A stretch of DNA of 64,000 nucleotides from an uncultured Ignavibacteriaceae bacterium (GTDB taxonomy: Bacteria; Bacteroidota; Ignavibacteria; Ignavibacteriales; Ignavibacteriaceae), in contig CAZQSR010000001.1 in NCBI GenBank assembly GCA_964596145.1, positions 2,023 through 66,022 on the forward strand, written 5' to 3'. The position numbers were made by a program, and so were the translations under genes. How positions within the stretch are numbered: the first letter of the stretch is position 1; every line of letters starts with the position of its first letter. This document shows, in pieces, positions 13,907-51,089 of the stretch. Below the pieces are notes generated by a model. The model ran no database searches. It saw only the letters and a program-made list of their open reading frames with translations, and was not told where the DNA came from.

Positions 13907-16900
13907 TTAAACCTCTACTGCTGTCCAGCTTACAACTCCATTTGTCACAACAGGAACAATTCGATAAACCTTTCCATTTGCCGTGTCCGCCTTAACAAAT
14001 CGGCTATCGTAATGAGTGAGTGTCATACTCCGCCTGATGCTTTCCTTATTGTAAGCATAGGTAAACATTACCAAATCACCACTAACCAAATCGGGGTGCG
14101 TGAAACTCAATCCGTTACCTGCTATTACGGCTGTGGCAGTGTTCAGCTCTGTGTAAGTCCCGTTAGCGTACTTCCGTATACTTTCAAGCGAGGCAATCGG
14201 ATAATCGGTGAGCTGGGTGGCAATGTTAGCTCCGTAAACCCCTGCATCGGCAATAATTGGTTCAAAGTAAACCGTTCCGCTGCTGTTTGAATTCAGCAGT
14301 CCAGCGTGAGCGATTGGGGTGATGGTTGGAGTGGCGAGGGTGTAATGGATGTTTGAGCCAATTACCGTTGTTGTTATTCCAGTTGCAGCCCCATCGGGAG
14401 TATTTATTAGCTCATCTTTAAAATTATCGATCTGTATGTCGTACAACCCGGAATTGCCAAAGTATAAACCAAAGGCTTGGGCGCCATTGCATGTGTAGTA
14501 GTATTCAAACCTACCTGCTCCTACCAATACTCTATTAATGTTAATTGTTCCGCTTCCGGGTAAGAAGCTGGCAATCGCAGGGCTTCCAGAATTAACTTTG
14601 AAATCAAATGATAAACGTCGGTATTGGCCCTGTGTACGGCTTACACCTATGTTATATACTGGGCGACCGAGAGAAGCAGGAGCAGTGGTAACTATAAGTC
14701 TTCCGTCCTGTGCCCCTGAAATTGGGCTACTTGTATTTAGAGTCCAAGTTGAAACACTTCCATCTCCGTCGTAACACGCCCCAATCAGCCCACCTTCAAA
14801 ATCGCTTCCTGTAATTCCGTTAGCTCCCAACGTCCCAACTCCAACCCGTTTAACCAGCTCATAGCCATTAGTCCCCTTGCGAATTTCGTCTTTGATAAGG
14901 CCGTTGCTGCGAAGTGGTGGGGTGGTGAGTTGTAGGATTGATTGGCGGTATGGTTCATAAGTTGTTGCTATTATATTTCGCTCAAGCTGTATATTTTCAA
15001 AAGATACAAAAGATGTTGAAGCCCCATTTATAAAAAAATGGATATTAACTCTTCCGGTAGACCCTGTTGTGAATAATAATGATTTATCTCCAGAAAAATT
15101 AATATTTGACGCTATCATAGAAATAGTGCCATTATCATAAATTGCGACATATGGAGTCTTACCGTCTGCCGAACTGTATCCTCTGGCTGAAAAAACATAG
15201 GATGTGTTAGGCAGAAGATTTACGGTGTACCCACGTCCTCTCGTTGAGGATGTATTGTATGCCAATATTCGGTTTCCGTCAAGCACATTCAGTATAGTGC
15301 CGGAAGCAGGCGGATTGGCTGTGTTGTAGCCCTTGGTATAATCAAGTAAATTCTTCCCAATACTCCTCATCCTACCAGTCCCAAGAACATTTTTACTGCC
15401 CTCAAAATAGTTGGCGAAAAGTAAGTAACATTGCTCTTTAGACGGTTCATTGCCGCCTCCGAATATAGCGGTGAGATTGATCACACGTATTCCGTAAACT
15501 GAAATAGTTCCGACATATGTGCTTTTTGATCCTACCCCAGTAAAGAAAAAATTAGCTGGCTGACCCATAGCGCCCCTGATTGACAATACCTGTAAATCAG
15601 TTGTAGACTGTGCATAAGATATATGGCTACTATTTACTGAAAGCGATGCATTGAACTGACCAAACATCACATCATTCGCAGATGGAGATATACTACACTT
15701 TATCAAGGCCATAGAATAGTAAATGTCTCCCGTAACAACAGTCCCCGTTGTATGCATTCTCATTAACGATTCGGTGTTAGTTTTTTGCATTAAAATACCT
15801 CCTGTCAATAAACTGCTTGTTACATTTGAGAAAAACCACCCTGTTGTCCCATTTCTAAAATCGCCATTTACAACCAAATTTTGAGCACTCTGCCCAAACA
15901 GCTGAACCTGCATACCTCCGTTTGCGGCGGTTTTAGGAAGTGGTATAGTGTCAACACCTGTCGCTGTAGCTGTTGTTTCTTGGTTGAGGTTGGCGGAATT
16001 GATAACGCTTTCCAATGTTGCAACTCTCGCATCAGTGATTAATTTGTTCTCCTGATAAGTATCGTTGCCAACAGTGATAACGCTTTGAACATACTCCTTA
16101 TTTGCGGCATCTCCATTGTTTACAGGGGTAGGCACTACCGGACTATCCGTAAACGTCTTTACCCCTGCAATGTTTTGTGCGCCGGTAAGGCCTACATACG
16201 ACGAATCGGCAGCTCCTTTGTTTAAAGCTTGCCCTGCGGTAGTGGGATCCGGAACGACAGGGGATGAGCTGAATGTCTTAACCCCAGCAACAGTTTCATT
16301 ACCCGTTAACCCTACCTTTGTCGCGATTGCAGCGGCTTGCAATGTCGAAACTGGCTTATTTGCATCGGATGTATTATCAACATTCCCCAGTCCAACATCA
16401 GCTTTTACGAGTAAAACATTTCCTGTCTTTCCGGCTACAGATTGAACCGGACCTGATCGCATAGGTCCCCAAACAGAACCTGACCACCTGAATTGGAATC
16501 TAGTAACAACGTCGACATAAATTTTGCCGGTGTATTTTTCTATAGATACGGTGTGTGTTTCATCGGTCCACAACTCTATAATTGTTTCAGGGTCTGAGTT
16601 ATCTGTGTATGTACCATATGCATCGACAAGATCATCGACAAATGACGGTAATTGTGCAGCAGGGACTAGGCCGTCACCATCAAGCGAAGCATACCCGTTT
16701 GCTTGTCCTTTATTCGCTGCATTTTCAGGTGTAAAACCAAGTAGCGGCTCGTAAAGTAAGTCTGTATCGGCCTTTAATGCTGCCTTGACATTCGCAACAG
16801 GGATGAATCGGACAATACCGTCACCATCTTTTATTGGAAGCTTGTCAGTATTGTTCAGTGTTGTAGTATCTCCGTCTACGTCTGCTAAATCACCAAATTT

Positions 16901-18247
16901 AATATCTTTAGAAACGTTTAATTCTACCGAACCAACAGTTGAATGAGAAACTACCACCTGACCAATCTGTACAGCGTAATTACCCTTCGCTGGCTTATTT
17001 CCAGTCCATCCACCAAGCACTGCCGGATTACCCCACAATTGAGCACCTTCAGCAATCCCGCTTGTGTTTAAATTGTTGATAATCCCTTTCGTTGTAACAC
17101 GTCCAGATTGGTTTTGTCCAATATACGGCACAGTAACCATTCCAACTATTGAACGAATTGATGTAAGATTTGTAAAGTCAGTACGCTTAATTCCTTTCCG
17201 GTTACCTGGAATTGCAGCGGTCGAAACTATCATACCATCAACCAACGGTACAGTATCGATATTTACATAATAGTCAAACATTTCTTTGAATAATGAACCG
17301 GTACCACCGTCAGACAATCCAAAATCAAGTGTTTTTTCATCAGGATTATATTGAATTTGACCAGCAAGAAGTGGTTGTACAGTTGGATTAGTTATAAAAC
17401 TTAAAACATTTATAGCTGAGTTAGACCCATCTATTAAAGCTATATTGGGTTTATCTGCGATGTAATAAGGATCTGTTTCTTCTGCATGTAATCCATCAGA
17501 TCTTTTTGATAAAATGTTTTTAGTTTTATTTGACCCTTCATTACTTAATCGCACTGTTAAAGGATTAGCATTACTAGCATTACCTGAAAGTGTTTGATCG
17601 TGTATAACAGTTACAAAAAGTCCGTCTGTTTTTCTTTGTAAAATATTATTTTCTTCTGATGAAATAACTACCCTATATTTATTTGTACTTGTTCCATCAC
17701 CAGTCAATGATTGGTCGGTTAAAAGGGATAATCTATATCTTTGTATTGTGTAGTAAGCAAATACATCATCTACTATATGAGGTACTAAGAAAATTATAGA
17801 TTGTATTAATAAGTCCTCTGTAATTTCAATAGCATGCCCATCTTCATCTAAAAATTCAGAATATATACCTGTTTCAGAAACTAAATATATTCCTGGAAAT
17901 TTTAAACTAATTTCATTTATTGGATTTGTTGCTATGGTAGCTAATCCTTTAAACTCTACTGTTTTATTAGACTCTGGCTTATATATATATTTTAGAGAAT
18001 TATAGAGTAGACTTATTAAATGGGCATAGTCTTCTTTTTGATAATATTTAGGAGAATTATCAAATCTTATAAGCAACTCAGTTAAATTATCATTTAAAAT
18101 TTCGATATTTGTTATAGTAGGTTCTGAGTTTGGATCTATTCCATAAATATTAAAAACATCATCATTCATAGATGAATTAATATCTAGACTTCTATTAGTA
18201 AGTTCCCCCAAATTTGAGGGAACTTGTACTTGTCTGAATGTTGCCAT
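13907..18247 (-). CDS. tail fibre / receptor-binding protein (1446 aa)
   Basis: Intact ORF ending in TAA. Gly/Thr/Ser/Asn-rich fibre composition. The C-terminal ~3.4 kb is visibly G+C-richer than its surroundings and has no in-frame TGA. Confidence 0.75.
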   Translation of the reverse strand: MATFRQVQVPSNLGELTNRSLDINSSMNDDVFNIYGIDPNSEPTITNIEILNDNLTELLIRFDNSPKYYQKEDYAHLISLLYNSLKYIYKPESNKTVEFKGLATIATNPINEISLKFPGIYLVSETGIYSEFLDEDGHAIEITEDLLIQSIIFLVPHIVDDVFAYYTIQRYRLSLLTDQSLTGDGTSTNKYRVVISSEENNILQRKTDGLFVTVIHDQTLSGNASNANPLTVRLSNEGSNKTKNILSKRSDGLHAEETDPYYIADKPNIALIDGSNSAINVLSFITNPTVQPLLAGQIQYNPDEKTLDFGLSDGGTGSLFKEMFDYYVNIDTVPLVDGMIVSTAAIPGNRKGIKRTDFTNLTSIRSIVGMVTVPYIGQNQSGRVTTKGIINNLNTSGIAEGAQLWGNPAVLGGWTGNKPAKGNYAVQIGQVVVSHSTVGSVELNVSKDIKFGDLADVDGDTTTLNNTDKLPIKDGDGIVRFIPVANVKAALKADTDLLYEPLLGFTPENAANKGQANGYASLDGDGLVPAAQLPSFVDDLVDAYGTYTDNSDPETIIELWTDETHTVSIEKYTGKIYVDVVTRFQFRWSGSVWGPMRSGPVQSVAGKTGNVLLVKADVGLGNVDNTSDANKPVSTLQAAAIATKVGLTGNETVAGVKTFSSSPVVPDPTTAGQALNKGAADSSYVGLTGAQNIAGVKTFTDSPVVPTPVNNGDAANKEYVQSVITVGNDTYQENKLITDARVATLESVINSANLNQETTATATGVDTIPLPKTAANGGMQVQLFGQSAQNLVVNGDFRNGTTGWFFSNVTSSLLTGGILMQKTNTESLMRMHTTGTVVTGDIYYSMALIKCSISPSANDVMFGQFNASLSVNSSHISYAQSTTDLQVLSIRGAMGQPANFFFTGVGSKSTYVGTISVYGIRVINLTAIFGGGNEPSKEQCYLLFANYFEGSKNVLGTGRMRSIGKNLLDYTKGYNTANPPASGTILNVLDGNRILAYNTSSTRGRGYTVNLLPNTSYVFSARGYSSADGKTPYVAIYDNGTISMIASNINFSGDKSLLFTTGSTGRVNIHFFINGASTSFVSFENIQLERNIIATTYEPYRQSILQLTTPPLRSNGLIKDEIRKGTNGYELVKRVGVGTLGANGITGSDFEGGLIGACYDGDGSVSTWTLNTSSPISGAQDGRLIVTTAPASLGRPVYNIGVSRTQGQYRRLSFDFKVNSGSPAIASFLPGSGTININRVLVGAGRFEYYYTCNGAQAFGLYFGNSGLYDIQIDNFKDELINTPDGAATGITTTVIGSNIHYTLATPTITPIAHAGLLNSNSSGTVYFEPIIADAGVYGANIATQLTDYPIASLESIRKYANGTYTELNTATAVIAGNGLSFTHPDLVSGDLVMFTYAYNKESIRRSMTLTHYDSRFVKADTANGKVYRIVPVVTNGVVSWTAVEV

Positions 18248-24369: not shown

Positions 24370-24644
24370 TATTTTTTGGTAAGTTTGGCCGCAAGCCCAA
24401 GAGCTCCACAAGCAGTTAATATATAACCAGAAATTGTGAAAATTAATGGATGAACACCATATCCTTGTAAGTTTCATAATACATCAGCACTAATAACTCC
24501 AGCAGCGGATGTTCCTATAATTATTGTGAAGTTTAAAATTTTTTTTCAAAATTCATTAATTTCTTCTCCCCAGCGATTTTGTATCTCTCGTATGATATTT
24601 TGTACTTCTCGGATGATATTTTGTACTCCTCGTATTATCTTCAT
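24369..24644 (-). CDS. small two-TM membrane protein (91 aa under code 4; holin-like topology)
   Basis: ATG at 24642-24644 overlaps the portal TAA. It has two in-frame TGA and two hydrophobic segments (ILNFTIIIGTSAAGVISADVLW, VHPLIFTISGYILTACGALGLAA). The N-terminus carries a tandem VQNIIRE repeat. The track misses this gene. Confidence 0.55.
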
Positions 24645-26839
24645 TATGTATTCTGTATTTCGTCATTCTTTTTATTATTATCTAAAAGCTGCAGTCCTTC
24701 TAATTGAATTCTTTTCTTTTCTCATTCGAGCATTTCTTCTTTGTAAGCACTATCAGTTCTGGCTTTAAACCAATCTATATTTTTTGAATGTTCTAATTTT
24801 TCTTTTTCAAGTTGTAATTTCTCATTATTCAATGATTGGATTTGTTGTTGTAATTTCTGAGTTTCCTGAGTAGCCTGTTTTAACTGTTGATTAAGTTGTT
24901 CCACTTGTTGTGTTAATTGACCAACTTGATTTGCTTCTTCTTTCTTAATCTTTAAAGCATTTAAAACATCATGTTTCATTTTAGTCAGTCCCGTTGCAGT
25001 TACTACTTCAAGTATTACTTCCGGGTCAACAATACCTCCTTTTATAAATTCAAAGGTTAATTGTTTCATAGTTTCCTGCTCTTTTAGAACATCTTGTGTA
25101 TCCGCAATATGAACATCATGATCAGTAAGTGTATAATATTCTGGAAGTGCTGTAAATGTTTTATTTAATTTATCACCTAACACTAATGTTCCAGTAATTC
25201 CATTTTTATATACAACTTTTGCAAGATTTAATAAATCTATCAACATTTCACGAGTCATTAAATCCATTGTGTGATAGTACTGTTTAGTTATAAAACTAGA
25301 TTGTCTAACTCCAACTTGTACATTAGTTACAGCATCTCGCTGTTCAATTCCTCCAAGTTTTTCTCTAAAAACTCCTGTTATTGTTGAACAAGTTTCTTCT
25401 ACTCTCTGAATTGCAATATCAATTGCTTGAATTGTTTGCATTTTAATTGTATCATCAAATCCTCCAAATGTTGTATTCATTGGTGGAAGTCCCTCTTGAG
25501 AACTATCGATCAGAGCAAGTCCTTGTTTCTTGTAAGCTTTCCACTTCATTAAACGTTCAGTTAAATCTGAACCTAAAAATTTAGGTAAATATGCTACATC
25601 AATTCAATCACCAACTGTTCCAGATTCTGCAATTACATTATCACGATAGAAGCATAATACATCAAATTTATCCTGTAAGTTTGCAGTAGCAAGCATTAAT
25701 GATATTGGATCTCCGTTTCTATCTGCATAAAAAATTCCATTTATTGATAAATTACACTCATTAGGTTCTGTGATACTTCTGAATACTTCTTCTGATTTAC
25801 CAAGTGGAATATATATTTGTCCTCCTATTCTTACTCCTTCATATCTGTTTACAACATACTCTTTTCCTTCTTTTTCAGTTTTTAATCACTCTACTTCATA
25901 AACAGGATACATTTTGAAGTATTTGTTAGTATTCCTTTCATATGGTAACAATGGAGTAACTTCAAATCCTCCAAGTATTCCATCAGATATTGTATTTCCA
26001 ACTACTGAGTCATAACTTCTCAAATAAGTAGTACTTGAACCATCAATACTAAAATCTTCAAGTGTATCAAGTACATCTAAATCTTCTTTTAAAATTAAAT
26101 GGCCATATCTTGCTAATATTTGATCTTTAGTCAGATATTCACGATAAACTGCTCTCATTGATTTCTTTAAATATGGTGAGGCTGGATTCCTATCAATAAA
26201 TGTATTAAGTGGATTTAATACTTGTAACTTCATACTTGTTTCAGACTCAGATTTAAAAGTCTTATAATAACAAGTTCCAGAAATAAGTAAATCCGTTAAT
26301 AATGTTTTTCTTTTTTCTTTGAAATCAATGTCTTGTGATTGGGTTATTCAATCTACAATATTTTGTGCTGCAATTTCATAATCTGATATAAAGTTTTGTT
26401 CCAATGAAGATTTTATTTCAAGAAGCTGTTTTTCTGTAATTGGATCATTAATCTCTTGTCCATATACAGTACTAAGAATTGTATTCTTTAATATTTTTTT
26501 AAGACCTGAGACAACTTCTGAATGAATTTTTAATTGTTTTTCTCTATATATATTTGATAAAGTTTCTTTATCTTTACAGGAGATTCTTGGAAGTAACGGT
26601 ACACCCAAATACTCCCCAATTAGAACATCTACATGTTTTCTTACTAGTGGGACAAATTCAACTGAAGTAGCTGTTCCTATTCCATAATTTTCTTCTAGGT
26701 GTCTAAATTGTTCTGGATCTCTTTTTCCGTGGTAGTAGTTATATGCTTTAATTAGTTGGGTTTTTTCATAAACAAGGTCATTAATTGCCCTATCAATGTT
26801 CACAATAATCTCAGCTTGTTCTTTATTTCATTTTTCCAT
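24644..26839 (-). CDS. portal protein (putative, 731 aa under code 4)
   Basis: Track fragments 26348..26803, 25886..26233 and 24722..25549 share one frame. The gaps contain only TGA, with 5 in-frame TGA in total. The ATG at 26837-26839 overlaps the upstream TAA, and TAA is at 24644-24646. Its size and its position next to the terminase fit a portal. Confidence 0.6.
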
Positions 26840-27123
26840 TATCTTTCACGTTCTTCTGTTAATCGGTTTACTCTATAAAAATAAACTCTAATATAATTCC
26901 GAATTCTAAATTCTTCTTTGATAAAATCCAAAAATTCTTCATCAGAGTTAGCATCACAAGCAATACTTGTAGGAGTCATGTAGCTAGGTAAGCCTATATT
27001 TAATCTATAAGATGTTCCATTTTGGGTAACATTTATAGATCCCTCGTATTCTGACTTATATAAATTCCTTATATAATCAAGAATCATCTGCACTAATTCT
27101 GGTCTTTCCATCCCTCTCTTCAT
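26839..27123 (-). CDS. hypothetical small protein (94 aa)
   Basis: Intact ORF ending in TAA, lying between terminase and portal. Confidence 0.6.
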   Translation of the reverse strand: MKRGMERPELVQMILDYIRNLYKSEYEGSINVTQNGTSYRLNIGLPSYMTPTSIACDANSDEEFLDFIKEEFRIRNYIRVYFYRVNRLTEERER

Positions 27124-29173
27124 TTGTTAACGGTATTACTCCGTAATGTTTATATCCTTTAGAATCTGTGTATCATCCAATATCTCTAAATTGATTACTT
27201 TTGGGTTCCCTTTCTGTTGGTTTTTTCATTGACAATTCTTCATCCCCAAGCTCAGCCATTCCCATTGCAGCTACAATGTCAAATTCTTTCTTTCTTTCAT
27301 CAGAATAATTTAACAACTGATCAACTACCTCTCTAAATGCAATCGTATGTGAATAATCTATACAAAAATCGTATATTAATTCCCTATAATGATTAATTAC
27401 TTTTGGAGGTGTTGGTGTGCCATACATGTTAGAGTTACCTTTAGATACATCAGGCATAGTTGCTCTTGGTCTTTTCATAAGTAGATTTAAATATTTATGA
27501 TCCCTGAAATAAGTTAAAATTGCAGTTCTAGTAGATTCTAAAACAGCTTTACATCCATAGTAAGTTAGTAGTTTTGCTGCGGTTTCGTAAGCTTCTCTAG
27601 GATCTTTAGGTCTATCTTTATATATCGCAACATACTTAGGTTCAGATAGTCCAATAACCCTTTTTTTAATTATAATACAAAATTCCGATACTTTCCCTGA
27701 TGAATCTTTTTGTGATGAATCCGCTGTTCCAATATCAATTGAGTCTATACCGCCTACATATAAATGTTGATACTCAGACCCATTCTCAGAAATCATTGGA
27801 TGTTCTAAAATTTTAATCTTTCCATTTTCATCATCGAATCTCCATTTAACTCTTCCAGTTCTTTTTTCAGTGTGTTTATCAATTTCCCATACTAAAGATC
27901 CTGTCTTGGGCAATTCTACTGTTTTATAAATATCAATAGCTGCCATTTGCTGAGCTAATTCTTCTCTTGGGAAAAACTCACTATCTTGCTGAATCAATGC
28001 TTCATCAATAGTAAAACAATACTCAGATTTATATTCTAGTAAATCTTTGGGATCTCCTACTTTTTTAGCCCTTTCTTTTAGATAGTATTCTTTTGCCTGT
28101 TCTGGATTACATCATCCTCTACTATCAACTAATTCATAGACTATTCTATACGCGGGTATAAATAATCCAGTTGTTACTCATCGCCCATCTTCGGTATAAT
28201 TATGCCTAACTGGTAAAATATTATATGCATCAGGATTCAGTGTTAGTTTTTTCAATCCTTCCATTGAGCTTGCTTTAGAGGAACCACCGGTACCAAATGC
28301 TAGTCGTCTACCAACTCGTTTTCCTCCTAACACTGTTATTAAAGCTTCTCCTTTAACCCACTTTTTTATTAAGAGATTATCTGCTCCAGCTTCTTCATAA
28401 ACTAGTAACTGAGTTCTATCTCCTCTTAATTTATCTGGATCATCACAAACTAATCCTTCAACTTCTGACATATGACCTGATTCTGCTCCATCTTTTGATT
28501 TTTTAGACGCTCTTTTATGAGTTTTTGTATTAATATTCATACGCACTCGCCTAAATGCCCCCTCAGTGTTATCGTTAAGTCAGTCTAATTGTAATCATAT
28601 TTTTGAAAGTGTAGGACCTAAATGCCCTGCGGAAAATGCTGAAATAACTGTGCGGAAATTAGGAATAGTAGTGTAAGGTCTAACTGTAAGTGATGCAGCA
28701 ATTTCCGACCAACCTATTCCACGAGATTTCAATGCAGACGTATCTTTCTTCAATAATTCGCACATTTCTGAATAATGAAAATACTCATATTGAAAAACAA
28801 AGAACTCTGGAAACCCATAATCCTGATTTATTGTTCCAGAATCAGAAGATTTTAAGTTGTAGAAATTCAAGAAGAAATAATTATCCCCAGTTAATCTGTA
28901 ACCATTGGATTCATATCCTTCATTACATCTTCTCTTTCTTTCAATCCATCAATCTCTATGAGTTTTAGAGCCAATAGGAATTGAAGTTGGACTGTATCTT
29001 CCAGTCCTTAATTTATTTATTGCGTCTTCTTTAAATCAGTTTGGGTTAAAATCTAATCCTTCTCTATCATTAATTGGCCGATATTTTGTTAAATAGTATG
29101 ACTTGGTATTATCAAAATACTCAATAGTATCATTAGGTCCAAAATCTCAACGTATTCCATCTATTATTTCCAT
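27056..29173 (-). CDS. terL: terminase large subunit (705 aa if TGA 27173 is read through; 666 aa if it terminates there)
   Basis: Fragments 28595..28870, 28178..28546 and 27173..27997 share one frame, with 8 in-frame TGA. ATG at 29171-29173 lies directly after the upstream TAG. Walker-B-like LLVYEEAG and a nuclease-domain GGIDSIDIGTADS motif are present. Confidence 0.75.
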
Positions 29174-30767: not shown

Positions 30768-30989
30768 TTATATTTTCTTTAAATCTTTAGTATTGAATAC
30801 ACTCTCCTGTAATTCTCCTGTATTGGTAAATCATCGGCATAAGATTCCTTGAAAGAAATCTCCTTTAATACTTTCAGTTTTAATTGTTTTTGTAACTCTG
30901 CGAATTACATACATTGTTGGTTTATTTGGCAACTCTTGTCTAAGAGTCACCATATCACCAGGTAAAAAGAATACTTTATCTGTTTCCAT
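30768..30989 (-). CDS. small DUF2158/YodC-like protein (73 aa under code 4)
   Basis: ATG at 30987-30989. The sequence is GDMVTLRQELPNKPTMYV...GILCR-W-F, with the W encoded by TGA at 30831-30833. As I recall this family, the C-x-W-F Trp is conserved. The track misses this gene. Confidence 0.55.
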
Positions 30990-35176: not shown

Positions 35177-35356
35177 TTACCATTTAGGTTGTAATTTTCC
35201 GTAGTTTTTAACTACATCACCCATTAATTCAGGTGCATATTCTTTTAATGTTTCTTTTATCAATTTCTTGGATGGATTTCCAAGTTGTAACTGAATTGCT
35301 CCGTATGTCCATCCATCTTTTCTTAATTCTATAATTCTTCTTTGTAAATCTGTCAT
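35177..35356 (-). CDS. small HTH protein (59 aa)
   Basis: ATG at 35354-35356 and TAA at 35177-35179. IIELRKDGWTYGAIQLQLG resembles the HTH in the adjacent HNH protein. Below the track cut-off. Confidence 0.45.
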   Translation of the reverse strand: MTDLQRRIIELRKDGWTYGAIQLQLGNPSKKLIKETLKEYAPELMGDVVKNYGKLQPKW

Positions 35357-35358
35357 AA

Positions 35359-36234
35359 TTATTTCTTTTCTACAATATATCCGAAATTCTCTAAAACTTC
35401 CTTACATAAATTTAAATATTCATCTAAATTCATAGATGATTTTGAAGCATTTGCAATTGGAGTAGTTATCCCCATATTTTCTAGTTCATTAGTGCCGCCA
35501 TTTGATACAGATTGAATGTGATCAAGACAATACGGATCTTTTGTTATATCAATAGGTCTGCCTGTTAAATAACATCTAGTTTGTAGTCCTCCTAAATGTT
35601 CTATCGCTTCTTTGTATGTATAATTTTTTTCTACTTTCATTTTGTTTCTATTTTTAAAGAATGATACTGATGCAGTTATTTTTCTGTCATGATTCTCTGT
35701 ATCCTGTTTACCTATACCAAATTCTCTAAGTTTAAAATTTGTCAATCTTTTTGATAATAAATATAAATAGGATTTTTCATTTTTTGATTTCTCTATTTTC
35801 TTCTTATGTGTAGTTTTAGTAGTTTTAGAACAATGGTAGGATACAGTAGATTTAGCACACCCTAAAATTATAGAAATATCTTTCATTGACTTTCCTAATC
35901 TTCTAAGCTCTATTATTTGTTTTCCTAATTCAGAAGTATTTTCATCAAGGTGCTCTAAATCTTTCAAATTACTTTCTAACTTTCTACAATTTGCTCCACA
36001 ATATCCATCATTTTCTACATGATATATTTTTCCACAAACTTTGCATATAAAATTCTTTGTTTCTTCAGGCTTAGATTTATTTTTTCTATCTAAAATTAGA
36101 TTTAACTTTTGACATTTAGTCCTGACAGTTCTTTCTGTCACATTATATATAAGTGCAATATCTTTATGCCAAAGTCCACTATTAAAATAGTTTTCTAATT
36201 CTTGTTTTGTTATTTGTTTTCATTCTTCTTTCAT
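35359..36234 (-). CDS. HNH endonuclease with N-terminal HTH/zinc-ribbon regions (291 aa under code 4)
   Basis: C-terminal CLDHIQSVSNGGTNELENMGITTPIANASK is an HNH motif. The only ATG start (36232-36234) requires reading TGA at 36220-36222 as sense. The track starts at an internal GTG. Confidence 0.7.
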
Positions 36235-36261
36235 TTACCTCCTACATTCACGTTTAGTTTG

Positions 36262-36334
36262 CTCCCTTGCCCCGACTCGAACAGAGACTTACGAATTTTG
36301 AAGATTCGCGTGCTAACCATTACACTACAAGGGA
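36262..36334 (-). tRNA. tRNA with anticodon UCA (reads UGA); Trp-like opal decoder
   Basis: Hand-folded cloverleaf, 73 nt. Acceptor UCCCUUG/CAAGGGA (7 bp). D arm GUGU-AAUGGUUA-GCAC. Anticodon arm CGAAU-CUUCAAA-AUUCG, with U33 and UCA at 34-36. Variable loop UAAGU. T arm CUCUG-UUCGAGU-CGGGG. Discriminator G73, no encoded CCA. Confidence 0.9.
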
Positions 36335-36369
36335 ATATTTCTCAGTACTTCCTAAAAAATCTTTCTTAA

Positions 36370-37923: not shown

Positions 37924-37958
37924 AAAGCCGAACACTTTAATTAGTGCTCGGCTTTTTG
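37924..37958. terminator. bidirectional hairpin terminator between convergent genes
   Basis: AAAGCCGAACAC / GTGCTCGGCTTT stem with T-runs, between the 37908 (+) and 37964 (-) gene ends. Confidence 0.7.
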
Positions 37959-37963
37959 TTTTA

Positions 37964-38188
37964 TTATCTAGCTGTTGTACAAAATATCGGATTCAGATTC
38001 GGATTCGGATCATAAGTAGGGACTGGTCCATAGTACGGAATAGTTGGGTAGTACATAATTGGATTAGAGGTTATACTATACTCTTCCAAGTTTATGTTTA
38101 AGCTTATTAAGCTATCAAGAAATTCTGTTATATTTACTGTAGCATTAACAGTTATAGTTTTGTTTGTGGTGTCTATTGTAAAATTCAT
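37964..38188 (-). CDS. hypothetical small protein (74 aa)
   Basis: Intact ORF ending in TAA. Confidence 0.55.
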   Translation of the reverse strand: MNFTIDTTNKTITVNATVNITEFLDSLISLNINLEEYSITSNPIMYYPTIPYYGPVPTYDPNPNLNPIFCTTAR

Positions 38189-38189
38189 T

Positions 38190-39014
38190 CTAGTTAATAT
38201 TTAAAATCCATTGTGTATCAGTTAAAAACTTATATAATTCAAAATTCCATCTTGCATCGTGTATTGCAGAATGTTCATTAGTTTGTTGTGGGTAATCAGG
38301 ATGTTTTTCTACTCTATCAATTTTTCCTGATTTAATTATGCTGGGGTATGTATCATCAACTGGGATGAAGTTCATGTAATAATATCCGTCTTTATATTTA
38401 ACATCAAGCATTTGCTTTAAATCTATACAATACATTGGGAAATGTTTAGGTAAGTCGATCATTTTTCCGAATAACCAACAGAACGCAACCCAATCATAAT
38501 CTGCGTAGTATCCGTAAAATTGAGGCTTGTACCTTTCATTCATGGTAATTAAATTAGCCATTCTGTCATTATACTCTGCGTCAGAATTATCTAATGGTAA
38601 CCTAGTATTAAATCCACAATCCAAATCTTTTAGAGCTACAAACATTTTGATATCTTCGGCTATTTGTTTATTGGTTTTACCAAAATTATCAATTAACCGT
38701 TTCATTGTTTTATACGTAAACTCGTATTTATTTTTTGCATCACCGATAATAAATTGATCGTATATAGGTTTTAGAACATTCTCTCTAATCCAATAATCTT
38801 TATATGCACCAGGAATACCATCATTAACTTCCTTTTGTTTCCAATCATATCTATTCCAGGCTTCTTTTAAATTGAAGTCTTTACTAATTGCATAATATTC
38901 CCTTCCATCTTCACAAACAATACCTACACTGATCAGGTCAATTGTAGGTTTTGTTTCACCAAACATTTTTTTCTGAGTTCCTTCTAAAAACTCAGTATCT
39001 ATAAAGTAATTCAT
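38190..39014 (-). CDS. DEDDh-type 3'-5' exonuclease (DnaQ/RNase T-like)
   Basis: N-terminal FIDTEFLEG (Exo I) and C-terminal HSAIHDARW (Exo III H-x4-D). Confidence 0.6.
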   Translation of the reverse strand: MNYFIDTEFLEGTQKKMFGETKPTIDLISVGIVCEDGREYYAISKDFNLKEAWNRYDWKQKEVNDGIPGAYKDYWIRENVLKPIYDQFIIGDAKNKYEFTYKTMKRLIDNFGKTNKQIAEDIKMFVALKDLDCGFNTRLPLDNSDAEYNDRMANLITMNERYKPQFYGYYADYDWVAFCWLFGKMIDLPKHFPMYCIDLKQMLDVKYKDGYYYMNFIPVDDTYPSIIKSGKIDRVEKHPDYPQQTNEHSAIHDARWNFELYKFLTDTQWILNIN

Positions 39015-39024
39015 TTATTTTTCA

Positions 39025-39279
39025 TTAAACATTAAGTATTCTATTTTTAAGAGCTTCTTTATTAAGTAATCCAACAATTCGATCAATTTTTATATTGTCT
39101 TTGTAAATATCAAGCGTTGGAATATTTCTAATTCCTTCAGCAGCTGCTTCATCCTCATTTTCTTCTATATCTACTTTTATAAGTTCGAAGTTGAGTTCCT
39201 CTTTTAATTCTTCTAGAATTGGTGAGAGGGTACGGCACGGTACACATCAATCTGCGTAATAGTCTATGATTCTAATCAT
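39025..39279 (-). CDS. trx: thioredoxin (84 aa under code 4)
   Basis: ATG at 39277-39279 overlaps the upstream TAA. Sequence: MIRIIDYYAD-W-CVPCRTLSPILEEL...IPTLDIYKDN. The Trp of the W-C-x-P-C active site is the TGA at 39247-39249. The track misses this gene. Confidence 0.8.
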
Positions 39280-39590
39280 TAATTTAATTGGTAATTGTTA
39301 AGTTCTAATAAATTTGGTTTTTGTACAAATGATGTTCTAATAAGAAGATTTCTATAAAAATCATCATTAATCTCTTTTTCTATTTCTTCTATATTTGAAG
39401 AGTATATCTCAATTGGAATTTTTGCTTTAGAAGTAAACTTAGGCTCACTATTTACAGAGTAAGTATAAACAATTTCTATGTTCTCTTCATCATACCCTGT
39501 CGATTCTATAACTAGGGCCTCTCCTAAATCTTCTTGTTTTAGTATTATATTTAATTGACTAATGTAATATTTTATTTGATCGGAAAGCAT
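39279..39590 (-). CDS. hypothetical protein (103 aa)
   Basis: Intact ORF ending in TAA. Confidence 0.6.
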   Translation of the reverse strand: MLSDQIKYYISQLNIILKQEDLGEALVIESTGYDEENIEIVYTYSVNSEPKFTSKAKIPIEIYSSNIEEIEKEINDDFYRNLLIRTSFVQKPNLLELNNYQLN

Positions 39591-39796
39591 TATGATATTG
39601 TTAGAGTATTGTCAATAATTTTAATATTAACTGAATGTTCATGCTTTAATCTAAGTAATACTTTATGTATTAATTCTTTAGATTCTCCATGTTCATCTAT
39701 AATTTTTACAGGAGTTCCAAAATTTTGAAATAGCTCTTGAATATAAAAATCAATAAGTCTTGTAGTTGTTCCTGTTTTATGCATACCGTATTTCAA
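39590..39796 (-). CDS. hypothetical small protein
   Basis: Intact ORF. The track start is TTG; the first ATG lies 4 codons in. Confidence 0.55.
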   Translation of the reverse strand: MKYGMHKTGTTTRLIDFYIQELFQNFGTPVKIIDEHGESKELIHKVLLRLKHEHSVNIKIIDNTLTIS

Positions 39797-39846
39797 AAGG
39801 GTTGGAGTAATTTGGTTTATCTTTATAGTTTTGGTAAAAGTACCAG

Positions 39847-40044
39847 TTATCGTGGAAAGTTTTGAGGTATGGGTTCATCTTGCAATTTTTTAAGTGTTTT
39901 ATTCATTTTAGTTATGTGATGAGCTATTTCGTTTACTTCTTCCTCTGTAAGTTCTGTAGGTGAGAATTGGAGAGTTGATATTAATTCATCTCTTTGATGA
40001 GTAAGTTGAATTATTTTAAGTTGAGTTTGTTTGTCTAACGCCAT
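39847..40044 (-). CDS. hypothetical small protein (65 aa)
   Basis: Intact ORF ending in TAA. Confidence 0.55.
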   Translation of the reverse strand: MALDKQTQLKIIQLTHQRDELISTLQFSPTELTEEEVNEIAHHITKMNKTLKKLQDEPIPQNFPR

Positions 40045-40346
40045 ATATCAATTTCTTTTAAGTTTCCAAATGATAATATTTGGGTTCCAGTTATGTCTAC
40101 TACCCCTGTTTGAATTGGTTTACTAAATAATAAATTTCTTAATATACTTTGAGATGTTGTATTATCCAAGTCAACAAGCATTGCTTCTGGATTTTTAATT
40201 AAACACATTGTATGTTTGATTAGTATATTGTCATTATAAAAAATCTTCATTGAAAGTTCATGTGAATCTTTTTCTAGTTTGAATTTTAAATATGGAACTT
40301 TTAAAAGTTCATTTAATTGCTGTATAAGAATCTCTGTTTTAAGCAT
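40035..40346 (-). CDS. hypothetical protein (103 aa)
   Basis: Intact ORF ending in TAG. Confidence 0.6.
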   Translation of the reverse strand: MLKTEILIQQLNELLKVPYLKFKLEKDSHELSMKIFYNDNILIKHTMCLIKNPEAMLVDLDNTTSQSILRNLLFSKPIQTGVVDITGTQILSFGNLKEIDIWR

Positions 40347-40352
40347 TGTGTT

Positions 40353-41798
40353 TTAAAATTTAAATTTATAATATGTTTCTTTCATCTTTTTTCTTGTTTT
40401 TCTTGTTTTAGTAAATGGTGGAAAATAATCTTTAAGTGTTGTACCTGAAAATTCTATTCCTAATTTTAGAAAATCTTCTTTGAATAATTCCTCAAGTTCT
40501 AAGTAAGTGTATTCTCTATTTTCTAGTTTTTCTTCTATCCAACTTGTTTGTGGTTCTTCAGTAGCGCAAGTAAAACCATTCTGTTCAGCTTCACAGATAA
40601 CACTAATTGTGTTTTTATAAATTTCACTGATTAATTTGTAATTGTATTCATCCACTTTTCGAAGATTGTCATCATAAAAGATTTCATTCTTGATTTTGTT
40701 TAAGTACATTGAATACCAAGTTTCTTTATTGAATAGTTTCAATTCTGTTTGTCTAAATAAATCATCCGGGTCTTCTTTAAATTTCTGTTCTCGATATTTA
40801 CCCATCTTTATATTTTCTTCTACATTGGCTTTGAATATTGTTTCTGAAGTTCCAACGTATCGGTGTTTACTAGTGTTTAAAATTAGAGTTATTTCATTTT
40901 TAAATTTAGAATCTCGTAACCTGCCAGAAATTTGTCTTATTAAAGTTGAAATATCAAGTACAGTAGTTGAAATATTAGTATCACTAAGAATAATTGTTTT
41001 ACCTATTGGATCATATATATCACACCCTTCAAATGCTGTTGCTGTGTAAAAGTTATATTTACAAGGAGGGTCAAGAGTAGATCCTACTTTTAGAGTTTTG
41101 ATATTAGCTTTAGAAGATTCCGAGCAAACTATTTTATAATCTGTTATTCCTGACTTTGTAACAATATCTCTAATTGTTCGCACCGAATTTAAAAAGATGT
41201 GATAGTTATATTCTGTGGGTTCTATCAATATTTTCAAAAGGGCTTTACTAGTGAAAGCTGTGTCAATTATATTTAATTTTATAGGAATTGCTCTTGTCCA
41301 ATGTATAGATATTCTTGGAAGATGTTTAATTTCATCAAGTATTATATCATTATTTAAAGGTGTAGCAGTCATAAAACAGTATCCTAAGAATTTATTGTAG
41401 TTCTTTAATAAAAAAAGGATAGCGTCGTTTCGATACGCATAAGAATTAAATAATATATGATACTCATCAATAAGTAAAAAGTAATTAGTAAGGTCTAAAT
41501 TGATTATTTTGTTCAGTGCATCATAAGTAGCAATAATCTTTTTATGTGGAATGTTAGAAGCTAAGTATCGTTCTATATCTTTTTCTTTAACTTGTGCATA
41601 TACTATAAATCCATCTTTTGATTTATTTTTAACAAGCTCAACAGTCGGAACTAGTATGATTGAATTTCTTGGTGAATGTAATTCAACATATGTACCTCCG
41701 CATCCTGTAACTCCTTTATTTAGTAAAACTCCAGAAGGAAGTTCAGTCATTATTTCGGAGAGATATGTTTTATCTGTTTCTATTATTGTTTCGTTCAT
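40353..41798 (-). CDS. SF2 helicase-like protein (481 aa)
   Basis: GVTGCGGTY (degenerate motif I), LLIDEYH (DExH motif II) and MTATP (motif III). Confidence 0.55.
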   Translation of the reverse strand: MNETIIETDKTYLSEIMTELPSGVLLNKGVTGCGGTYVELHSPRNSIILVPTVELVKNKSKDGFIVYAQVKEKDIERYLASNIPHKKIIATYDALNKIINLDLTNYFLLIDEYHILFNSYAYRNDAILFLLKNYNKFLGYCFMTATPLNNDIILDEIKHLPRISIHWTRAIPIKLNIIDTAFTSKALLKILIEPTEYNYHIFLNSVRTIRDIVTKSGITDYKIVCSESSKANIKTLKVGSTLDPPCKYNFYTATAFEGCDIYDPIGKTIILSDTNISTTVLDISTLIRQISGRLRDSKFKNEITLILNTSKHRYVGTSETIFKANVEENIKMGKYREQKFKEDPDDLFRQTELKLFNKETWYSMYLNKIKNEIFYDDNLRKVDEYNYKLISEIYKNTISVICEAEQNGFTCATEEPQTSWIEEKLENREYTYLELEELFKEDFLKLGIEFSGTTLKDYFPPFTKTRKTRKKMKETYYKFKF

Positions 41799-41908
41799 AT
41801 GTTAAAATTGGGTATTTAATGATTAAAGTCAAAATCTACCGTGTCCGCTTGCGTATAGGAGTTGGTGTGTCCACCTTGACGCGGAGTAGGGCGTGGCCTT
41901 TTGAAATA

Positions 41909-41916
41909 CAAAGATA
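41909..41916 (-). promoter_or_regulatory. -7 promoter box TATCTTTG
   Basis: Plus-strand CAAAGATA, about 110 nt upstream of the helicase-like gene, leaving a G+C-rich leader. Confidence 0.45.
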
Positions 41917-47497: not shown

Positions 47498-47875
47498 ATG
47501 ATGGAAGTTCCAACTTGGAATCAAATTATTACTCTAATAGTAATATTTGGTTCAGCTGTAATAGCAAGGCAGTTGATTATCTCAAAAAAATCTGTTTCTT
47601 TAATAGATAAAGTAATAATTAAAATATTATTACACTATCTTGAAAACACAGATTATTGGGAAACTTATTATTGTACTGGGTTATGTGATTTTGTGGGTGT
47701 TTTGAACAAAGAAACAAAATGGGCTAAGTTTCCTGGTATTTGTAAAATAATGCTTAACTTTATTAATAGTAATTTTCCAAAAAACTCATATGGTGTTTTT
47801 TGGTTCGAACCAACGGATAAACAAGTTAGAATTGATTACTTAAAGAAATTATTGAATGAAGAAGTTAATCGATGA
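47498..47875 (+). CDS. hypothetical membrane-anchored protein (125 aa)
   Basis: Intact ORF with an N-terminal hydrophobic segment. Confidence 0.65.
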   Translation: MMEVPTWNQIITLIVIFGSAVIARQLIISKKSVSLIDKVIIKILLHYLENTDYWETYYCTGLCDFVGVLNKETKWAKFPGICKIMLNFINSNFPKNSYGVFWFEPTDKQVRIDYLKKLLNEEVNR

Positions 47876-48050
47876 TACAGAAGTCAATTCAAGAGGATAT
47901 TATTATCTGTTGGATTGGAATGAACAGGATAATTGGAATACAATTTTAATTTTATTTAATACGGCTAAGTTACATGAGCTAACTATTAGTCAGTATAAAG
48001 AGCTTTTTAAAATTGCAACAGAATCTGATTATAATGTATTAGACAAATAA
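47856..48050 (+). CDS. hypothetical small protein (64 aa)
   Basis: Intact ORF ending in TAA. Confidence 0.5.
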   Translation: MKKLIDDTEVNSRGYYYLLDWNEQDNWNTILILFNTAKLHELTISQYKELFKIATESDYNVLDK

Positions 48051-48096
48051 CATATTGTGAAATAGAAATATTTTGTTGTTCTTAAATAAAAATCAA

Positions 48097-48678
48097 ATGA
48101 AACTATACGAATTAAAAAATTATCGTTCATTAACATATCCAGTAGGTAAAGATATAAAAATTTTAAATATGTTTATAAATTCAGTTATTAATAAAATAAT
48201 TGAAGAAGAATTACTTTCAAATGTTCAAGAAATTACAGTTTGGTGCAGAGGAAGTAGTGGGGCTATGTTAGCAAGTCTTTTTTCTGCTAACTTAGTAGAA
48301 AAAATGAACGTTGATATAAAAATAAGTCATATCAAAAAACCAGGTGAACATTCTCATTATTGTAATTCAAGTGAAAATACTTTTTCTACCTACAATATTG
48401 TAATTGATGATTTAGTAGCAACTGGAAGTACATTAAAATTTCTTGAAGAACATTTCAGAAAAATAAAATTACCTCAAGTTGATATACTTATTTTAGGAAG
48501 TATAAACTACGATTTAGAAAATGATGCATGGAATTCTGAAAAAAATTATTATGATTTCTCAGATATTACATTCAGACATTTTATACCTGAAATTATTCTA
48601 ATAGGGTCAATGTTTCGTTTAAATCCAGATAAACTTAATGAATATGTTAAAAATCTTCCGACGACAAAATTCAATTAA
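48097..48678 (+). CDS. type I phosphoribosyltransferase-like protein
   Basis: YNIVIDDLVATGSTLKFL matches the PRPP-binding motif. The first ATG is at 48097; the track starts at an upstream TTG. Confidence 0.55.
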   Translation: MKLYELKNYRSLTYPVGKDIKILNMFINSVINKIIEEELLSNVQEITVWCRGSSGAMLASLFSANLVEKMNVDIKISHIKKPGEHSHYCNSSENTFSTYNIVIDDLVATGSTLKFLEEHFRKIKLPQVDILILGSINYDLENDAWNSEKNYYDFSDITFRHFIPEIILIGSMFRLNPDKLNEYVKNLPTTKFN

Positions 48679-48727
48679 ACTTTTAAAATTAAAAAAGAAT
48701 TTTAACTGACATTAAAACAAAATCATT

Positions 48728-49435
48728 ATGTATAAAAAAGTAAATGTGGTTATGCTTCCTACTAATGTATCTAAAAGATACAATTGCACAGAAGGGCTTA
48801 TTGTGAAATGCATTAAATCTTGGACTCCAATAGGTGAGGCTCCCATAGAAATAGATAAATTGTTTATTTCTAAAAATTGGTCAAAAGGAGTTTTATATTA
48901 TTATGAATGTCAACATCTTTATATTATTTCAGATGAAGAAGTAAAAGAAGGTGATTGGTTTGCGATTAGTAAGAATAAAGTAGTACAATGTCAAAATTGT
49001 TTAGGTGCTTTAGGATATACAAGAGATATTGATAATGCTTTTATTTATATTGTCTCAAAATATCATAACAAAATCATTGCAACAACTGATACTTCATTAA
49101 GATTACCACAACTGCCTCAAAAATTTATTGAGTTATATTGTCAAAAATATAATGAAGGTAATCCTATTACTGAGGTTATGGTTGAGTATGAAATAGGAGA
49201 ATGTAAATGTAAAGATATTGAGTTGTTTGGTGAGTGTATAAATCAATTTAATACTTGTATCAAATCAAAATTAAAAATCAACTCTGACAATACTATCAAC
49301 ATTAAACCAACTAAAGATAGTTGGACTCGAGAAGAAGTTATTGCATTATGCAGAAGTGCTCATTTACACGGTGAGCAAGGTGCATTAAATCTGCATAATC
49401 AAGTCTTTAAACAATGGATTGAAGAAAATTTATAA
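48728..49435 (+). CDS. hypothetical protein (235 aa)
   Basis: Intact ORF ending in TAA. Confidence 0.65.
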   Translation: MYKKVNVVMLPTNVSKRYNCTEGLIVKCIKSWTPIGEAPIEIDKLFISKNWSKGVLYYYECQHLYIISDEEVKEGDWFAISKNKVVQCQNCLGALGYTRDIDNAFIYIVSKYHNKIIATTDTSLRLPQLPQKFIELYCQKYNEGNPITEVMVEYEIGECKCKDIELFGECINQFNTCIKSKLKINSDNTINIKPTKDSWTREEVIALCRSAHLHGEQGALNLHNQVFKQWIEENL

Positions 49436-49456
49436 ACCCAAAACAAAAATAAAAAA

Positions 49457-49702
49457 ATGGAAGCATCAACATTATTACTCAGCATTATTCCAGAAAATTC
49501 AATTTTAGAAATGTTAGAAGAAGCTATTAAAGAACATAAACTTCTTAATACTCCTGAAACTAAAAAAGAATTAAAGACTATGGTAATCATGTATAGTATG
49601 AAACTTACTGTAGCAGAGAATATGGAGTCAGCTTTAGAATTTGAAAAAGAAGCTGAGAGAATGAGAGCTGGAATGAATTTACTTAATCCCAAAATAGGAT
49701 AA
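49457..49702 (+). CDS. hypothetical small protein (81 aa)
   Basis: Intact ORF ending in TAA. Confidence 0.6.
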   Translation: MEASTLLLSIIPENSILEMLEEAIKEHKLLNTPETKKELKTMVIMYSMKLTVAENMESALEFEKEAERMRAGMNLLNPKIG

Positions 49703-49703
49703 T

Positions 49704-49871
49704 ATGAAAGAACAGAAACTAACTAAAACTGATAAAAAAATATTAGCTCATAGAGCTTTTATATCAGTGTGTCAAAAATCAAATTCATATCCTGTTTGGA
49801 TGCAAGAATATTTTCGTAATGATTTAGATGCTTATAATAAAGCTATAAATCGTAATGAAATATTAAACTAG
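49704..49871 (+). CDS. hypothetical small protein (55 aa)
   Basis: ATG 2 nt after the previous stop. Ends in TAG and is followed by the nested hairpin GGGTTCC..CCTTC/GAAGG..GGAACCC (49877-49912). Confidence 0.5.
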   Translation: MKEQKLTKTDKKILAHRAFISVCQKSNSYPVWMQEYFRNDLDAYNKAINRNEILN

Positions 49872-50043
49872 TTATTTTTTGGGTTCCAATCCTTCTTCTG
49901 AAGGTGCGGAACCCATTAATTTTAAATTTACTAACCCAAAAAATACAAAAACATGGACGCATTAATTATTAACGGTCACCAGTTTCTCATTGATGATGAC
50001 AACAACCTTGGAGATTTTCAACGTAATCATACTCTAAACTAAT

Positions 50044-50229
50044 ATGAAAGACTGGTATGATGAAATGGTAGATGATCTACTAGAAGTAGGTACTCCACAG
50101 TTTATTGAAAAGGTTTATAATGGAGAATATCAAGAATATTGGTATCAAATTCTTCATGCTGAAGATAATATCAAAGCAAGACCTTACTTTCAAGAAATTT
50201 TTCAATCATTTTTAAACGCATATGTATGA
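50044..50229 (+). CDS. hypothetical small protein (61 aa)
   Basis: Intact ORF ending in TGA in an ATGA overlap. Confidence 0.55.
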   Translation: MKDWYDEMVDDLLEVGTPQFIEKVYNGEYQEYWYQILHAEDNIKARPYFQEIFQSFLNAYV

Positions 50230-50372
50230 AAATCTTAGGTAGTCTTTTTGTTTTAGGATTAGCAATTTTATTTGCCATCTTAAAAATTACAATTGCATCA
50301 TTTATCCTTTTTATAATAGGATTTGTTTTATTAATAATCCAAGTAAAACTATGTTATGAGCAAGAAAACTGA
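50226..50372 (+). CDS. small hydrophobic protein (48 aa)
   Basis: ATGA overlap with the previous gene. The sequence is almost entirely hydrophobic, with two TM-like stretches. Confidence 0.45.
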   Translation: MKILGSLFVLGLAILFAILKITIASFILFIIGFVLLIIQVKLCYEQEN

Positions 50373-50781
50373 TCCAACTGAACGTGCTAAAAAAGCAGCT
50401 ATAGCTCTTGCTAAAGTTCGTCTACAACAAGTAAATTTTACTTATAAGGAATTAACTGATGCACTACGTACTCACGGATTTCCCTATTTTATAGAAGGGG
50501 TTTCAATGTTAAAAAAGCTTGGTTTAATTGCTAAAGATTCTGAAGGTTATTATTTCACAACAAAAGAACCAATTCATTTTAGCAAGCTTCGTGCTCCTCT
50601 TGATGAATTATGTACTCGTTATGGAAGACAACCAAAAAATAATGTAATTCAAGAAGAGAAATTTGCATATCTTGTTTCTATGAACAATGAAATCACAGTA
50701 GTTCTTTCTGAAGAAAATTTACTTGAATTTATTAAACAAAATAGAACTGTAACCATAGAAAAAATAAAAATTTATGGCTAA
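50356..50781 (+). CDS. hypothetical protein (141 aa)
   Basis: Intact ORF. Confidence 0.65.
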   Translation: MSKKTDPTERAKKAAIALAKVRLQQVNFTYKELTDALRTHGFPYFIEGVSMLKKLGLIAKDSEGYYFTTKEPIHFSKLRAPLDELCTRYGRQPKNNVIQEEKFAYLVSMNNEITVVLSEENLLEFIKQNRTVTIEKIKIYG

Positions 50782-51070
50782 TCCTTATTTTCTTCCAAAC
50801 GATGATAAAAATTGTCGTTTGAAAGAACTTCCAGATGGACTTCGTATAATATACATTTTATCGTGTCCTGAAACATATCCCAAACGATCATTTAAATCGA
50901 AAAATAAATGGTATGTTAAAAGGTATTATGATCTCAAGTATACAAACAATATGTCAAATGTTATATCTCAAGCATATCTATACTTAAAAAGAGATACAAT
51001 GCTTGAATTAGCACTTTACAAGAAACAATTAATTGAGCAGAAAATTATTCAACTGTTTCTACAGTTTTAA
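50774..51070 (+). CDS. hypothetical protein (98 aa)
   Basis: Intact ORF ending in TAA. Confidence 0.6.
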   Translation: MANPYFLPNDDKNCRLKELPDGLRIIYILSCPETYPKRSFKSKNKWYVKRYYDLKYTNNMSNVISQAYLYLKRDTMLELALYKKQLIEQKIIQLFLQF

Positions 51071-51089
51071 ATAACAAAACAAATAAAAA

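Follow-up and report, generated by a model that had tools for sequence, protein, structure and literature searches.

A Thioredoxin Gene with an Active-Site TGA in a Probable crAss-like Phage That Very Probably Reads This Codon as Tryptophan

Introduction

In Mycoplasma and Spiroplasma, which use code 4, a tRNA with the anticodon UCA decodes UGA as Trp throughout the genome of the cell. TGA-to-Trp recoding that is accompanied by a suppressor tRNA has also been described in crAss-like phages (Yutin 2021, PMC7886860; Borges 2021, bioRxiv 10.1101/2021.08.26.457843). This recoding was reported to be partial and to concern the late genes (Yutin 2021, PMC7886860), and charging of the suppressor tRNA by the host TrpRS was proposed (Borges et al., bioRxiv 10.1101/2021.08.26.457843). 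The phage contig analyzed here has several features in common with these code 4 crAss-like phages (PMC7886860; bioRxiv 10.1101/2021.08.26.457843): in-frame TGA codons in TerL, the portal gene and other late genes, alignment of TGA with Trp, a phage tRNA(UCA), a standard-code host, and early genes that are largely devoid of sense TGA. Unlike the published phages, it appears to be a distant environmental relative, as judged by the comparison of TerL, in which identity to classified Crassvirales was about 29%, and it carries a lone sense TGA within an otherwise code-neutral module of replication type. This TGA lies in a thioredoxin gene, and thioredoxin is mentioned in neither of the two reports (PMC7886860; bioRxiv 10.1101/2021.08.26.457843). 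As in Mycoplasma and Spiroplasma, UGA would be read as Trp by a tRNA with the anticodon UCA; in contrast to those bacteria, the recoding is phage-borne and partial, with TGA probably still serving as a stop in the plus-strand arm of the contig.

Phage T4 encodes NrdC, a glutaredoxin-like phage thioredoxin with a CVYC motif, and the DNA polymerase of T7 uses the host thioredoxin as a cofactor. The protein described here would resemble both in being a small redox protein in a phage nucleotide-metabolism or replication context. It differs from T4 NrdC in being a true thioredoxin by sequence, and in that no phage RNR was found on contigs C1 or C3. With E. coli TrxA (2trx), it shares the W-C-x-P-C motif, the buried Asp, the cis-Pro loop (IPT) and the core fold. 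However, it has only 84 aa, compared with about 108 aa in E. coli TrxA, and is without the N-terminal beta1-alpha1; its motif has Val for the Gly of bacterial TrxA, and its Trp codon is TGA.

The Phage Genome and Its Binned Host

The window, i.e., the whole stretch of 64,000 nucleotides that was analyzed, comprises positions 2023-66022 of contig C1 in a fragmented MAG (329 contigs, 2.67 Mb, 62.8% completeness). It consists of phage DNA and encodes TerL, a portal protein, RNase H, PhoH, an exonuclease, an HNH endonuclease and NAD-salvage genes (for coordinates of the features discussed, see Table 1). TerL showed 46.6% identity to a human-gut cMAG and 26-31% identity to classified crAss-like, Flavobacterium and Azobacteroides phages. 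No terminal repeat was found on C1. Residence as a prophage at ssrA was also considered, in view of the full-length tmRNA gene on the phage contig.

For most of the 40 largest MAG contigs, ORF coverage was about 90% under table 11 and barely higher under table 4. ORF coverage rose from 0.66 to 0.82 for C1, and from 0.73 to 0.96 for C3, when table 4 replaced table 11, so readthrough of TGA is needed on both. Of 1501 long host ORFs, 311 end in TGA; the binned host uses the standard code, in which TGA is a stop, and the phage is linked to this host by binning only. The host has a TrxA of its own (WAPWCGPC), which spells both Trp residues TGG and is 36% identical to the phage thioredoxin, and none of the other PF00085 matches of the MAG contains an internal stop. 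The relatives found for a host RNR were all from Bacteroidota, with identities of no more than 44%, and a tRNA-Trp was not recovered in the MAG at its 62.8% completeness.

Two further contigs deserve mention. C3, with a length of 43.1 kb, is likewise TGA-recoded; it encodes giant late proteins of up to 3216 aa that all contain TGA, and is likely the rest of the same phage. C30 carries a second family-A DNA polymerase together with a cluster of five tRNA genes, and may also be phage DNA.

Table 1. Features of the phage contig and of related loci. Positions refer to the window unless a related locus (L) is named.
Feature	Position	Strand	Remarks
Portal protein	24644-26839	minus	5 in-frame TGAs
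Large terminase (TerL)	27056-29173	minus	9 in-frame TGAs; used for codon tally
DUF2158-like gene	30768-30989	minus	73 aa; TGA at 30831-30833 = W53 in C-R-W-F
Phage tRNA, anticodon UCA	36261-36334	minus	74 nt, class I, 7-bp acceptor stem, G73 discriminator; presumed decoder of TGA
Terminator-like hairpin	37924-37955	minus	13-bp stem followed by T run, directly after last module gene
Eight-gene module	37964-41798	minus	481-aa protein, small ORFs, thioredoxin, RNase H / Rv2179c-like exonuclease, 74-aa ORF
Thioredoxin gene	39025-39279	minus	84 aa with TGA = Trp (table 4 translation)
In-frame TGA, codon 11 of thioredoxin gene	39247-39249	minus	Active-site Trp of WCVPC
TATCTTTG, Bacteroidota-type -7 promoter box	41909-41916	minus	Upstream of first module gene
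tmRNA, full length	63132-63566	plus	Rfam RF00023, 66.5 bits
Long tRNA(UCA), extra arm	L062:10571-10666		
Long tRNA(UCA), extra arm	L016:1008-1100		
Long tRNA(UCA), extra arm	L036:3272-3367		
Long tRNA(UCA), extra arm	L061:1307-1401		
Long tRNA(UCA), extra arm	L042:1555-1654		

The Thioredoxin Gene and Its Product

The initial annotation had placed an 84-aa ORF at 39025-39279 without stating its strand, and had remarked that it was missing from the gene track. The coordinates proved to be right, and the frame lies on the minus strand; no open frame was found on the plus strand of the same interval. Read with table 4, the minus strand begins with MIRIIDYYADWCVPCRTLSPILEEL, later contains IPTLDIY and ends in ILNV, with a single TGA in frame, and the complete protein, of 9.7 kDa, is MIRIIDYYADWCVPCRTLSPILEELKEELNFELIKVDIEENEDEAAAEGIRNIPTLDIYKDNIKIDRIVGLLNKEALKNRILNV. 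The ATG (39279-39277) shares one base with the TAA that ends the upstream gene. With table 11, this frame contains no ORF that reaches 20 aa, and standard-code annotation would therefore skip the gene. The predicted tryptic peptide that covers codon 11 is IIDYYADWCVPCR.

The Pfam Thioredoxin family (PF00085) was matched with an E value of 2.5e-20 and 72.9 bits, against a gathering score of 23.5, and residues 4-81 aligned with profile positions 22-101 of 103. Searches of PDB chains with phmmer gave E values down to 4e-21, with DWCVPC paired with PWCGPC or DWCGPC of solved thioredoxins. In the residue-level alignment to these structures, residue 11 falls on the active-site W of WCGPC, and the claim that the TGA occupies the Trp of the WCxPC motif was thereby borne out. 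The redox motif thus reads W11-C12-V13-P14-C15, with both Cys present and with W encoded by TGA; the active-site W is kept in 17 of 17 full-length homologs. In the alignment of homologs, D6, C12, P14, C15 and P54 (in IPT) proved to be conserved or invariant, D6 being the counterpart of D26, and P54 that of cis-Pro76. An AlphaFold2 model of the 84-aa protein (pLDDT 93.9) has the order beta-alpha-beta-alpha-beta-beta-alpha, which is the minimal thioredoxin fold, and Foldseek superimposed all 84 residues on thioredoxins including E. coli 2trx with a TM score of 0.92 and an rmsd of about 1.0-1.1 Å. Judged by sequence family and modeled fold, the gene encodes an intact, true thioredoxin, and we infer that the product is made and predict that it is functional. 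It would most likely be a disulfide reductase that is reduced by the host thioredoxin reductase, a role that we propose with low confidence; equally tentatively, it may contribute to dNTP supply or replication, in the manner of T4 NrdC, or act as a cofactor of a polymerase, as thioredoxin does in T7. Any such role is a guess, because C1 and C3 yielded neither a phage RNR nor another redox partner.

The thioredoxin gene belongs to the eight-gene module, of which the 481-aa protein had no family match. The module had been described as otherwise free of TGA, and this was confirmed: it contains 1 TGA and 11 TGG codons, compared with 68 and 44, respectively, in the block of late genes that spans 6.8-32.3 kb (Fisher p = 5e-4), and its only TGA, whether sense or stop, is codon 11 of the thioredoxin gene. 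As none of its genes ends in TGA, the module is compatible with both codes save for this codon. The TATCTTTG motif occurs frequently in the window, so that the box upstream of the module is weak evidence of a promoter, and a sigma-70 promoter scan was uninformative (41 sites vs. 39.6 expected). When the window was compared with the related locus L062, the 481-aa gene (window 40341-41900; L062:2158-3717) showed 95.7% identity and the rest of the module 77-86%, an alignment pattern that indicates mosaic recombination between related phages.

Decoding of TGA in the Phage

The TGA-bearing genes of the window were compared, codon by codon, with 61 TerL-related IMG/VR loci and other fetched loci. 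At the positions of window TGA codons (n = 949), the relatives most often had TGA (472) or TGG (235), followed by TAT (79), TTT (28), TAC (19) and TTC (18). At window TGG codons, they had TGA (223), TGG (156), and then Phe and Tyr codons. Besides the TGAs of TerL and the portal gene, 13-20 in-frame TGAs are present in each of the giant proteins. The plus-strand arm (42-64 kb) has a different pattern: in seven ORFs within 47498-60331, the in-frame TGA falls 1-18 codons ahead of the next TAA or TAG (e.g., STEII-TGA-K-TAA at 56833-57297), and the remaining TGAs are codon 2 of TTG-start calls or lie in short, doubtful ORFs. Because of this positional bias to ORF ends, TGA is suggested to be a true stop in the plus-strand arm; probably, then, it has this meaning there and means Trp in the late genes. 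The earlier statement that TGA encodes Trp, rather than selenocysteine or another residue, therefore stands for the late genes and for thioredoxin, where the codon comparison upholds it, and does not extend to the whole genome. The use of TGA as a stop in one arm fits the partial, late-gene recoding of Yutin 2021 (PMC7886860).

The phage tRNA(UCA) sits 2.7 kb downstream of the thioredoxin gene. It scored 56.5 bits as an ordinary tRNA, and Rfam matched it to tRNA over tRNA-Sec, both being in one clan; ARAGORN labeled it 'SeC' only because of its anticodon. The related loci contain 20 tRNA(UCA) genes. E. coli tRNA-Trp has A1-U72 and C34, and because the U1-A72 and U34 of the phage tRNA differ from these, its Trp identity rests on the comparative codon data together with C35-A36 and G73. 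Both TrpRS and a release factor were searched for on the phage contigs, and neither was found. We therefore infer that the host TrpRS charges the tRNA with Trp, in line with the proposal of Borges et al. (bioRxiv 10.1101/2021.08.26.457843).

The initial annotation had pointed to a DUF2158-like gene as a second case of TGA at a Trp position. With regard to the codon, this view was supported: the C-x-W-F motif was invariant in 50 of 50 relatives, with W spelled TGA in 41 and TGG in 9, and the TGA at W53 thus clearly aligns as Trp. The family name fared less well, since the window protein reached 18.3 bits with DUF2158 (PF09926), below the gathering score of 22.3. None of eight relatives exceeded 18.3 bits and five of these had no match, and the protein would thus be linked to DUF2158 by resemblance only; a sequence search of the PDB with it gave no match.

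Variation at Codon 11 and Its Interpretation

Among syntenic orthologs, codon 11 is TGA in the window and in L062, L065, L206, L209 and L210, and TGG in L205, L207, L208, L063, L064 and L066. The TGA cannot be explained as an assembly error, because the five related loci with TGA come from independent assemblies of other samples. One and the same protein is encoded by L205 (TGG) and L206 (TGA), which share 99.06% identity over 532 nt; within the gene they differ at three sites, all synonymous under code 4, and the TGG/TGA exchange is one of these. A tree was built from 11 close sequences with codon 11 masked. It forces at least three independent TGG/TGA changes, and four are found on the ML tree; the two spellings are unclustered, with a change count no lower than that obtained with shuffled labels. 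Codon 11 therefore drifts like a synonymous site. When IMG/VR was scanned for DNA with the exact pattern D-Y-Y-A-D-TGA-C-V-P-C, no match was found, and the thioredoxins retrieved from IMG/VR by an alignment-based scan were all distant (34-50% identity across most of the protein) and all had TGG. It was also observed that, in the window and its relatives, TGA at codon 11 is followed by TGT in 6 of 6 cases and TGG by TGC in 4 of 5; with such small numbers, this pairing could reflect shared AT drift or a context effect.

These data are very probably explained by a crAss-like phage that reads TGA as Trp via its own tRNA(UCA), with the spelling of codon 11 as a neutral synonymous variant. According to this explanation, a crAss-like phage genome would have been binned with a standard-code, Bacteroidota-like MAG, and its tRNA(UCA), presumably charged by the host TrpRS, would insert Trp at TGA. 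The single Trp of the thioredoxin, in WCVPC, would simply happen to be TGA instead of TGG, and codon 11 would have flipped between the two repeatedly in close relatives, with no special signal involved. A regulatory gate, in which the lone TGA is under selection and thioredoxin synthesis has to await the accumulation of the suppressor tRNA, would couple redox or nucleotide (dNTP) metabolism to the phage code switch. The depletion of TGA in the module (1:11 vs. 68:44, p = 5e-4) and the fact that thioredoxin is the sole exception to it in both the window and L062 are in favor of such a gate. We nevertheless regard it as very unlikely, and drift as the better account, because of the flips among the 11 close sequences, which separate even contigs with 99% identity, because the active-site Trp is spelled TGG in 43 of 46 relatives of the thioredoxin, the recoded L003 and L004 among them, and because TGA occurs sporadically in the neighboring middle genes of relatives (RNase H, exonuclease and PhoH). 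It is less probable still that TGA is a true stop that leaves the thioredoxin gene dead or its product truncated to 10 aa, even though TGA is a stop in the binned host and appears to end genes in the plus-strand arm of the phage. The ten codons ahead of the TGA change synonymously among orthologs while the protein is conserved, which argues against a dead gene. Furthermore, the TGA persists in contigs of the five other samples, the catalytic residues are all intact, the start codon is coupled to the stop of the preceding gene, and TerL and the portal gene need TGA readthrough as well, with a tRNA(UCA) at hand.

Other meanings of the codon have an even smaller probability. Phages that use code 25, in which TGA is Gly, do exist (Borges 2021, bioRxiv 10.1101/2021.08.26.457843). 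However, Gly or another non-Trp residue is a highly improbable reading here: Gly (GGN) codons are very few at the 949 aligned TGA positions and absent from the 15 commonest codons, and TGG, followed by Tyr and Phe codons, dominates as it does at TGG positions. In addition, the host is a standard-code, Bacteroidota-like organism, and not a member of Absconditabacteria or Gracilibacteria. Thioredoxin-fold selenoproteins exist too, and the ARAGORN label, derived from the anticodon only, could be taken to point to selenocysteine at codon 11. Of all the readings weighed, this has the lowest probability, because the TGA is at the Trp position and at neither Cys of CxxC, the 74-nt tRNA is a class I molecule that Rfam assigns to tRNA, and orthologs have TGG. 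No significant SECIS-like hairpin was found after the TGA (z = -1.3); tRNA-Sec was not found, and no selB of the MAG passed the cut-off. Given that Cys-site UGA, SECIS hairpin, tRNA-Sec and SelB are all missing, a bacterial selenoprotein is effectively refuted.

Significance for Annotation and Related Observations

The TGA of the thioredoxin gene is a clean but ordinary example of the documented TGA-to-Trp recoding, and biologically it adds nothing new to Yutin 2021 (PMC7886860) and Borges 2021 (bioRxiv 10.1101/2021.08.26.457843). Its value lies chiefly in annotation. Gene callers of the dual-code or block-wise type would class the module as a standard-code block and would miss a real thioredoxin, since there is no in-frame start beyond the TGA. 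In addition, the TGG/TGA polymorphism at 99% identity demonstrates, concisely and from natural sequences, the synonymy of TGA and TGG in these phages.

Several related loci carry a longer form of tRNA(UCA), of 93-100 nt, with an extra arm (Table 1). The stem of this arm varies with compensatory changes and its loop always contains UCCAA, which in L042 is part of CUCCAAA, a Trp anticodon loop. Insertion of Ser by the long-arm tRNAs was rejected, as TGA in the loci that carry them still aligns with Trp, Phe and Tyr. The slot that has the 83-aa gene on one side and the genes toward PhoH on the other (window 35179-36365; L062:10563-10703) contains the short tRNA(UCA) and an HNH endonuclease gene in the window, and only the long two-arm tRNA(UCA) in L062, with flanks that align at 78-80%. 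This suggests replacement of a cassette at the tRNA slot, perhaps driven by the HNH gene. A further compositional feature is found in the late block, where a 1446-aa gene (13907-18247, minus strand) has no TGA, 8 TGG and a G+C content of 0.39-0.43 amid TGA-rich surroundings of roughly 30% G+C; this compositional and coding island may have been acquired recently.
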